Source of the DNA: Methanoregula sp.
GTDB lineage: Archaea; Halobacteriota; Methanomicrobia; Methanomicrobiales; Methanospirillaceae
Assembly: GCA_041653075.1 (NCBI GenBank)
Contig: JBAZFZ010000004.1
Coordinates: forward strand, 2,699 to 66,698
Direction of reading: 5' to 3'
Length of the DNA stretch: 64,000 bases
Under the pieces are notes generated by a model that ran no database searches, was not told the DNA's origin, and saw only the letters and a list, made by a program, of their open reading frames with translations. Positions 60,873 to 62,142 of this stretch are shown here, piece by piece; positions within the stretch are counted from its first letter, which is position 1, and each line of letters opens with the position of its first letter. The translations under genes and the position numbers were made by a program.

Positions 60873-61229
60873 TCAGAGATAACGGTTCTTCCTGAGCCAG
60901 TCGACCTGCGGTGGAAGGTACCGGTACACGATATCGCACTTGTCGTCCTGGAAGGCCCACGGGATGATAATAAGCGTGTCGCCTTCACGGATCCAGACAC
61001 GTTTTTTGATCTTGCCCTTGATCCGGCCCATCCGGGTGACCCCGTCGAAACACCGGACCCGGATATGGTTTGCCCCCATCATCAGATCGGCAGATCCGAA
61101 CATCTCGTTGTTCCACTTTTTCGGGAGCCGGACACGGATTACGGGTGTACCGTCCGCGTTGACCTCCCCGGGCGATCCAAATACCTCGTCTCCTGACGAT
61201 TTCCCTTTTTTATGGTTATTCTCGGTGAT
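60873..61229 (-). CDS. eif1a: Archaeal translation initiation factor aIF1A (start placed at a putative ATC)
   Basis: IRVRLP...RCFDGVTRMGRIKGKIKKRVWIREGD...PW. The conserved RVRLP motif lies upstream of the first ATG (61103). Confidence 0.92.
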   Translation of the reverse strand: MTENNHKKGKSSGDEVFGSPGEVNADGTPVIRVRLPKKWNNEMFGSADLMMGANHIRVRCFDGVTRMGRIKGKIKKRVWIREGDTLIIIPWAFQDDKCDIVYRYLPPQVDWLRKNRYL

Positions 61230-61377
61230 CGAAACAACTCCGTTTATTTAAATGATGTCGGGGAAGATTAACATATCCATGCAGATCGGTTTTGCGATCG
61301 AATCCCCGGCGCTGGGCACACGGAAAATCCCCCGAAAAAAATACATTATTTTGCCTGGCCGTTGAATAGAATGGCGT

Positions 61378-62142
61378 ATGTCTGAACTGTCCGCTCCATC
61401 TGCGCCCAGGGTACATAAGGATCTCCTTTGGGGGGGGATATCCGGTCTTTTCGGTGCGTTTGCCGGAATTGCGGTTGCCCTCGCGCTTGCACTTCTGATC
61501 TTCCCGTCCCCGGAATACCTTGCCATGAGTTACTATCTCCAGCTTGTCACGGCATTTGCCGGTGCCGGTGCCATCTGTCTTTTGTATTTCCGGTACGGGC
61601 GTAATACCGGCATGCTGTACGGGGCCGGGGCGTTTGCCCTCTGGGGGCTTTCCAATGTTGCCTGGTACTTCACGGGTCTTGACGGTGGCAAGGCATGGGT
61701 TTTCCCGAGTCTCATAGATATGGGCATTGTTGCGTCGATAATTATCCTCACCTCTGCATACGGGCGGCTTTATCCCCGGATGCCGTTTTCCGGGCAGGTC
61801 ATTCTTGGCATCCTTGTGTTCTCGCTTGTCGTCCCGCTTGCCATTATCTTTTCCACCGGTGCTTCGGGGCCGGCGCTTATGACTCTCTTGTATTTCTTTG
61901 CCTGCGGTACGCTTGTGATAACTGCGCTCAACCACGGGGTTATCCGGCGCCCGGCAGCCCTTGTCGGGACGCTTCTTTTTGCCATTGCATTCATGGCATA
62001 CCCTGTCCGTGAGATGTTCTTTTCTGCAAATCAGTACCTTACGATTCTCGGGCTTTTTGTTGCTGCCGGGTTTTCGCTTATTGTCATCGGCTTCCTGCCG
62101 GGTAATCCTGCAGTTAGTGAACCTGCGGAAAAGACGGCATAA
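61378..62142 (+). CDS. Polytopic membrane protein of unknown function
   Basis: About eight hydrophobic helices; FPSLID motif. Confidence 0.75.
   Translation: MSELSAPSAPRVHKDLLWGGISGLFGAFAGIAVALALALLIFPSPEYLAMSYYLQLVTAFAGAGAICLLYFRYGRNTGMLYGAGAFALWGLSNVAWYFTGLDGGKAWVFPSLIDMGIVASIIILTSAYGRLYPRMPFSGQVILGILVFSLVVPLAIIFSTGASGPALMTLLYFFACGTLVITALNHGVIRRPAALVGTLLFAIAFMAYPVREMFFSANQYLTILGLFVAAGFSLIVIGFLPGNPAVSEPAEKTA

Follow-up and report, generated by a model that had tools for sequence, protein, structure and literature searches.

In a 64,000-nucleotide stretch of DNA from Methanoregula sp. (order Methanomicrobiales; GenBank assembly GCA_041653075.1, contig JBAZFZ010000004.1, positions 2,699 to 66,698 of the forward strand; hereafter, the window), the gene for the archaeal translation initiation factor aIF1A, encoded on the minus strand, very probably starts at an AUC codon (61229) located 3 nt after the Shine-Dalgarno (SD) element GGAGUUGUU, and the weakness of this start is very probably selected. 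Aligned aIF1A genes conserve the SD element together with its spacing and avoid AUG, and on this basis the weak codon is judged not to be a lesion. The window belongs to a Methanoregula metagenome-assembled genome (MAG) of 88 contigs that is 75.5% complete, in which the window copy was recovered as a 100% self-match at C4:63574-63927.

Between an in-frame TAA (61250-61248) and the first in-frame ATG (61103-61101), the aIF1A frame contains 48 sense codons, none of which is ATG, GTG, or TTG, and 8 nt separate a GGAG (61241-61238) from the in-frame ATC (61229-61227). This arrangement had been described in the original prediction, made from the letters of the window, and all of its coordinates were borne out (Table 1). 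Translated from ATC, the frame encodes ITENNHKKGKSSGDE...VIRVRLPKKWNNE, followed by MFGSAD... The 118-residue product is assigned to aIF1A by the cut-offs of curated families, with matches to PF01176 (E = 1.8e-20, 72.8 bits versus a cut-off of 30.2), NCBIfam NF003085 (E = 4.3e-53, score 177.8 versus a cut-off of 92, with residues 21-118 corresponding to positions 10-107 of the 108-position model), and TIGR00523 (score 121.9 versus a cut-off of 102.9). Residues 30-118 align to residues 9-98 of Methanocaldococcus jannaschii aIF1A (1JT8; E = 2.3e-31), and the Pyrococcus abyssi protein aligns from window residue 21. A start at the first ATG (Met43) would delete the RVRLPKKWNNE segment, which is covered by all family and structure references. 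Thus, full-length colinearity with solved aIF1A proteins, including the RVRLP strand, requires that translation start upstream of Met43.

An SD element stands at canonical spacing before the near-cognate codon in the window. The 16S rRNA of a complete genome from the same genus, located with RF01959, ends in ...GGAUCACCUCCU, such that GGAGUUGUU pairs with it at seven of nine positions. The ribosome-binding region of the window is unstructured, and less structured than shuffled sequence (z = +1.06).

Table 1. Features of the aIF1A locus in the window (whole-stretch coordinates)
Feature	Position	Strand	Basis or remark
aIF1A coding sequence, as proposed	60873..61229	-	118 codons from ATC 61229 plus TGA stop (60875-60873); translation and family matches
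Proposed start codon ATC (AUC), near-cognate to AUG	61227..61229	-	Aligned position is ATC, ATA, or ATT in all window-type orthologues
SD element GGAGTTGTT	61233..61241	-	7/9 complementary to the 16S 3′ end; followed by 3-nt spacer TCG (61232-61230)
N-terminal tail and first OB-fold strand (TENNHKK...VIRVRLPKKWNNE)	61104..61226	-	Lost under a first-ATG start
In-frame TAA	61248..61250	-	Closes the frame 6 codons upstream of ATC
First in-frame canonical start codon, ATG (Met43)	61101..61103	-	Judged not to be the start; opens a 76-aa open reading frame
Out-of-frame TTG within the SD element	61235..61237	-	Alternative start of the original prediction; rejected
A6 run, forming A_AAA_AAG in the TTG frame	61206..61211	-	Judged neither a frameshift site nor an assembly error
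TATA-like TTTAAATA	61245..61252	-	Perfect archaeal type, 23 nt upstream of ATC

Conservation of the weak start in Methanomicrobiales

To define the start codons of related genes, aIF1A loci were gathered from 40 relatives, from another 60 genomes of high quality in the class, and by scanning named genomes; at each locus, the in-frame codon following the sequence most similar to GGAGGTGAT was taken as the start. In the 145 distinct Methanomicrobiales loci, the called start was CTG in 55, ATT in 31, ATC in 18, ATA in 16, and TTG in about 12, the last mainly from Methanocorpusculum, while a few were ambiguous. ATG was found at 5 loci, all of which encode one paralogue type (named after locus L002 of the source genome) with GTAG or GAAG in place of GGAG. 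CTG or ATH (ATT, ATC, or ATA) therefore accounts for about 120 of the 145 loci. The AUU, AUC, and AUA codons are carried by a paralogue group of Methanoregula and Methanospirillum, and CUG is found in other Methanomicrobiales. The close orthologues of the window gene, which are colinear with it from the first codon, hold ATC, ATA, or ATT at that codon. The start proposed in the original prediction was thereby upheld, and what emerged is the opposite of uniformly canonical orthologous starts: near-cognate starts are conserved across the aligned 5′ ends, with CTG in paralogues and in other families.

Several features of the alignments place initiation at this codon. In 18 of the ATT loci, a TGA stop immediately precedes ATT, and the start therefore cannot lie upstream; at many loci, an in-frame stop is found 0-10 codons upstream with no canonical start in between. 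In four orthologue groups, variability is flat over the frame positions upstream of the SD element, is low in the SD element and spacer, and acquires three-base periodicity immediately after the near-cognate codon; in the group containing the window gene, it amounts to 0.010, 0.003, and 0.098 at codon positions 1, 2, and 3, respectively. Within the start codon, positions 1 and 2 are invariant, and ATH ends in T, C, or A, with G in 0 of 65 loci. A tree of the OB-fold core (219 labelled tips) requires no fewer than 29 changes of start codon, and a switch between ATG and a weak codon accounts for only 5 of them. These comparisons indicate that the conserved trait is weakness rather than any particular codon: a suboptimal start is maintained over distant taxa, and AUG is avoided.

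The SD context is conserved along with the codon. GGAGTTG is near-invariant over 20 aligned loci, the spacer is nearly always 3 nt, and 6-9 of 9 positions match GGAGGTGAT. The same layout of an SD-like 9-mer, a 3-nt spacer, and a near-cognate codon is found at the corresponding codon of well over 300 distinct aIF1A loci, a recurrence that is more than chance.

The original prediction had offered a 1-nt indel in the A run as an alternative. Seven rather than six A residues at 61211-61206 would join the frame of the TTG at 61237, reading MFRSPRITIKKGK..., to the aIF1A frame; alternatively, ATC could be a miscalled ATG. However, orthologues from more than 25 other assemblies keep both ATC, ATA, or ATT and the frame while having no A run (e.g., CAT AGA AAG GGG), the TTG abuts GGAG without a spacer and is part of the conserved GGAGTTG, and the peptide FRSPRITI is not conserved. 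In addition, the window was matched with 0 differences and 0 gaps by a contig of the probable source run (over 61011-61400) and by an independent landfill-metagenome contig (over 61073-61223, which includes the A6 run and ends before ATC). An assembly or sequencing error is accordingly extremely improbable and already close to refuted. The same TTG could also serve as the start for programmed −1 frameshifting, with slippage on A_AAA_AAG into the aIF1A frame, and the TTG frame does read ATA AAA AAG, a classic slippery heptamer. Yet orthologues lack the heptamer (CAT AGA AAG; ACC AAA AAG AAG, read in a different register), predictions show no structure downstream, the TTG has no SD spacing, and in codons 2-8 (TENNHKK / TDNNQRK) the aIF1A frame is conserved while third positions vary; frameshifting thus has next to no probability.

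Four aIF1A-like copies are present in the source genome, three of which have no canonical start. Besides the window gene, these are L003 and L004, which start at CTG behind AGGAGAGGTTGTA and AGGAGAGGTTTTT, respectively, both following an SD element of the AGGAGAGGTT type. The fourth copy, L002 (G000:C1:44896-45204), has a normal ATG start and an SD core degraded to GTAG. Together with L120, L131, L142, and L143, it forms the sole Methanomicrobiales group with ATG, in which GTAGTTGGT or GAAGTTGGT replaces GGAGTTG-T; in these paralogues, codon strength and SD strength are inversely related. In L004 (G000:C1:27113-27463, plus strand), an in-frame TGA (L004 1768-1770) replaces the conserved Trp of PW(N/S)FQD in an otherwise intact gene, which may be explained by recent pseudogenization, strain variation, or a mistake in assembly.

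This multiplicity of copies, along with the in-frame TGA of L004, would also suit a decaying window gene, or one yielding only a truncated 76-aa protein from the ATG at 61103, with paralogues supplying aIF1A function. Such decay is nonetheless very unlikely: all 118 codons of the window copy are intact, purifying selection on its first 42 codons is clear in orthologues, many complete relatives have either a single copy, of the ATH or CTG type, or two copies including one of this type, and a Met43 start would remove residues aligned to solved aIF1A structures.

Weak starts beyond the order and specificity to aIF1A

In a phylum-level sample of 80 distinct loci from other families, CTG was found at 45, TTG at about 18, GTG at a few, and ATG at 12; 10 of these 12 ATG loci represent a divergent MSDD...LRMP type without an SD element, which is haloarchaeal by named hits. 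In Methanosarcinaceae (Methanosarcina, Methanococcoides, Methanolobus, and Methanohalobium; 76 loci), CTG occurs at 51 loci and TTG at 17, with a conserved (L)ANY... N terminus, and 52 of the 76 loci contain no canonical codon before the OB fold. Archaeoglobi have CTG (41), TTG (14), and ATG (5), and CTG is found at 18 of 19 loci from Methanothrix, Methanocella, and Methanoperedens.

Exceptions and annotation effects were observed within these families. Among the Methanosarcinaceae loci L248-L327, many from Methanosarcina and Methanococcoides have an in-frame ATG 7 codons after the conserved CTG (LANYRSN-M...), at which annotations in these genera probably start, and Methanolobus and several Methanosarcina paralogues have no such ATG. 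In a subclade of Archaeoglobaceae MAGs (L373, L374, L390, L394, and L501), ATG directly follows a perfect GGAGGTGAT-TGA; these exceptions to the weak start are potential natural controls.

Outside the phylum, loci were identified by a pattern scan on W(I/V)R(E/V)GD, which is independent of similarity to the query, and starts were called by eye from codon views. Among 50 such loci, TTG was found at 25 (Bathyarchaeia, Methanobacteria, Methanomassiliicoccales, and an Iainarchaeum), ATG at 17 (DPANN lineages, Thermococcus, Hadesarchaea, Nitrosopumilales, and some others), GTG at 6, and ATA and ACG at 1 each. The last two, L422 and L500 from Bathyarchaeia / Thermoproteota MAGs, carry ACG at one locus and ATA at the other in place of the M, L, or V that precedes GK(K/R)KV in relatives, and are possible near-cognate aIF1A starts outside Halobacteriota. 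From these samples, the CTG/ATH form is characteristic of Halobacteriota, and the raw start-codon counts are suggestive of a wider archaeal tendency toward a weak aIF1A start. With respect to scope, the weak start claimed for this gene by the original prediction stands, but it is not peculiar to the gene or the order, being phylum-wide and, in its TTG form, partly archaea-wide.

The gene for the fidelity factor aIF1 was not found in the 75.5%-complete source MAG by a PF01253 search. In five complete relatives (L236-L240), aIF1 (SUI1) has a plain ATG start (MIGGICPTCG...); the region upstream is A/T-rich and lacks an SD-like motif, which suggests that its mode of initiation differs from that of aIF1A. 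The genome was also scanned for near-cognate codons that follow an SD element and begin long frames without a canonical start. The aIF1A copies were recovered, with no excess over other codons; the scan is noisy, since at 53% GC antisense frames resemble coding sequence, and a small number of such genes would escape it.

Two other open reading frames (ORFs) of the source genome resemble the aIF1A layout. One, the single convincing case besides aIF1A, on the minus strand at G000:C24:23864-25123 (L328 265-1524), encodes 420 aa with a DsrE/DsrF domain and has ATA behind AGGTGAT. Its next canonical codon lies 76 codons downstream, its N terminus is conserved in relatives, and Pfam hits only downstream domains. 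ATG occupies the aligned codon at 10 of the 11 relative loci that were examined. This pattern, as expected for sporadic substitution, is the opposite of the one at aIF1A, and the ATA appears to be either a sporadic near-cognate start or an error of one base in the MAG. The other, also on the minus strand (G000:C7:48880-49878; L329 281-1279), is an ORF resembling membrane glycosyltransferases, hit weakly by GT87 and PMT_2, in which Pfam likewise matches only downstream. It may start at an ATT behind GAGGTGA, and a transmembrane stretch is predicted upstream of its first ATG.

Stringency feedback or fixed output

The consequences of such a start can be outlined from general knowledge of non-AUG initiation. 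Initiator Met-tRNA would read the near-cognate codon, yielding a protein that begins Met-Thr-Glu-Asn-Asn, and the strong SD element would compensate for the poor codon-anticodon match. The weak start would then tie aIF1A synthesis to the prevailing start-codon stringency, and this dependence could place aIF1A under negative feedback or cross-regulation. Sensitivity of output to stringency would follow from the rejection of non-AUG codons by aIF1, the factor next to which aIF1A sits on the 30S subunit. For the eukaryotic orthologue, eIF1A, a role in start recognition is established in yeast. In an in vitro system from Sulfolobus solfataricus, aIF1 destabilizes non-AUG complexes, blocks AUU, and discriminates against other non-AUG codons (PMC6237735, PMC4705826).

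A stringency feedback on aIF1A synthesis, analogous to that of infC with its AUU start and of eIF1 with its poor context, is put forward tentatively. A regulatory role is plausible from the comparative data, in which weakness is conserved rather than one codon, ATG is avoided, and aIF1 itself has ATG. Several observations weigh against it. Archaeal control of stringency has been established for aIF1, not for aIF1A (PMC6237735, PMC4705826), and this fidelity factor has a plain ATG, such that the analogy with infC and eIF1 self-regulation is not one-to-one. Furthermore, a weak codon is not obligatory: the L002-type paralogue has ATG behind a degraded SD element, and four of the five Archaeoglobi ATG loci, from Archaeoglobaceae, follow a perfect GGAGGTGAT.

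Transcription adds a further difficulty. An A/T-rich box is present in related loci at the same distance from the start as the TATA-like TTTAAATA of the window; if this element is the promoter, the transcript would begin near or after ATC and would exclude the SD element. A second A/T-rich element, ATGTTAAT, at about −55, could instead yield a leader about 25 nt long. The alignment of related loci revealed no conserved RNA structure in the region of the start, a result by which a protein-binding operator is neither supported nor excluded.

About as likely as stringency feedback is a static throttle, in which the AUC start is real and selected, and the combination of weak codon and strong SD element fixes a low output or the ratios among paralogues. 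The interchangeability of several weak codons on the tree fits this explanation, as does the ATG of aIF1; the L002-type genes, with ATG and GTAG or GAAG for GGAG, look like compensation of total initiation strength, and the several paralogues per genome could need different fixed outputs. Under a throttle, however, ATG with a weak SD element would be expected as a frequent substitute, and ATG is involved in only 5 of at least 29 changes on the tree. The absence of G from the third base of ATH in 65 loci and the persistence of the layout across the phylum, in a gene of the start-selection machinery, also argue against it.

Known systems, annotation, and significance

Feedback of start stringency through suboptimal starts is textbook knowledge for bacteria (infC) and eukaryotes (eIF1 and eIF5). 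As with infC, which encodes IF3, the gene considered here encodes an initiation factor and has a conserved near-cognate start (AUU in infC; AUU, AUC, AUA, or CUG here) behind a functional SD element; in both cases, the factor is part of the start-codon discrimination machinery, and weakness rather than one codon is conserved across taxa. In contrast to aIF1A, IF3 is itself the discriminator, and its repression of AUU initiation has been demonstrated experimentally; the aIF1A case is one of sequence comparison. Moreover, aIF1A is the homologue of bacterial IF1, not IF3, and the gene for aIF1, the discriminator in archaea, has ATG in the relatives examined.

In eukaryotes, eIF1 is autoregulated through poor context and eIF5 through an upstream ORF (uORF) (Ivanov et al. 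2010, PMC2964218; Loughran et al. 2012, PMC3326321). There, too, the levels of stringency factors feed back on their own mRNAs via suboptimal initiation sites, and eIF1A is the orthologue of aIF1A. The eukaryotic sites, however, are an AUG in poor Kozak context or uORFs encountered during scanning, whereas the aIF1A start is a non-AUG codon placed by SD pairing.

Near-cognate initiation has been reported in archaea, including CTG-initiated small ORFs in ribosome profiling (Ribo-seq) of Methanosarcina mazei (PMC11456600) and near-cognate initiation sites in Haloferax volcanii (PMC7261190). Like the aIF1A start, such sporadic cases comprise ATT, ATC, ATA, or CTG behind correctly spaced SD motifs, but they concern scattered genes, whereas the aIF1A start is conserved across orders and paralogues. 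With respect to solved aIF1A proteins (M. jannaschii 1JT8; P. abyssi 30S complexes 5JB3, 6SW9, and 7ZAG), the window protein shares family and fold and differs in its longer N-terminal tail, which places about 29 residues ahead of the RVRLP strand. The one sampled Thermococcus locus differs in starting at ATG behind GGGGGTGAT.

In full-text literature, coverage of which does not extend to subscription-only papers, neither a non-AUG start nor autoregulation of aIF1A was found described, nor was a loop of the eIF1 or eIF5 kind found for eIF1A, and no description of start-stringency feedback via suboptimal starts was found for archaea. While suboptimal starts on initiation-factor genes are known, what is new is their occurrence on aIF1A, in Archaea, as SD-positioned CUG/AUH codons.

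Public Methanoregula aIF1A records disagree on the N terminus (P0002, P0010, P0012, and P0044 versus P0007 and P0020). Some begin at the ATH codon: the NCBI protein P0007 (MTDNNQRKG...) equals, from residue 2 onward, the ORFs from ATC (L040) and ATA (L041), and P0020 equals the ORF from ATT (L139). Others extend through the SD element to a spurious upstream ATG, and still others are truncated in the tail or OB fold. Across Halobacteriota, gene finders restricted to ATG, GTG, and TTG will mis-call aIF1A, which is a universal marker gene.

A core archaeal initiation factor with a weak start conserved over hundreds of genomes presents the signature that lay behind the bacterial and eukaryotic discoveries. 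The question is testable: Methanosarcina, which are in culture and tractable genetically, carry the CTG form and Methanospirillum the ATT form, and Ribo-seq data exist for M. mazei and M. acetivorans. It is possible, by analogy, that this anciently conserved weak start, CUG/AUH in Halobacteriota and mostly UUG in Methanobacteria and Bathyarchaeia, is the archaeal counterpart of the infC-AUU, eIF1, and eIF5 loops, although this proposal is somewhat less likely than its negation. If true, homeostasis of start-site fidelity by suboptimal initiation would be a principle common to all three domains of life.

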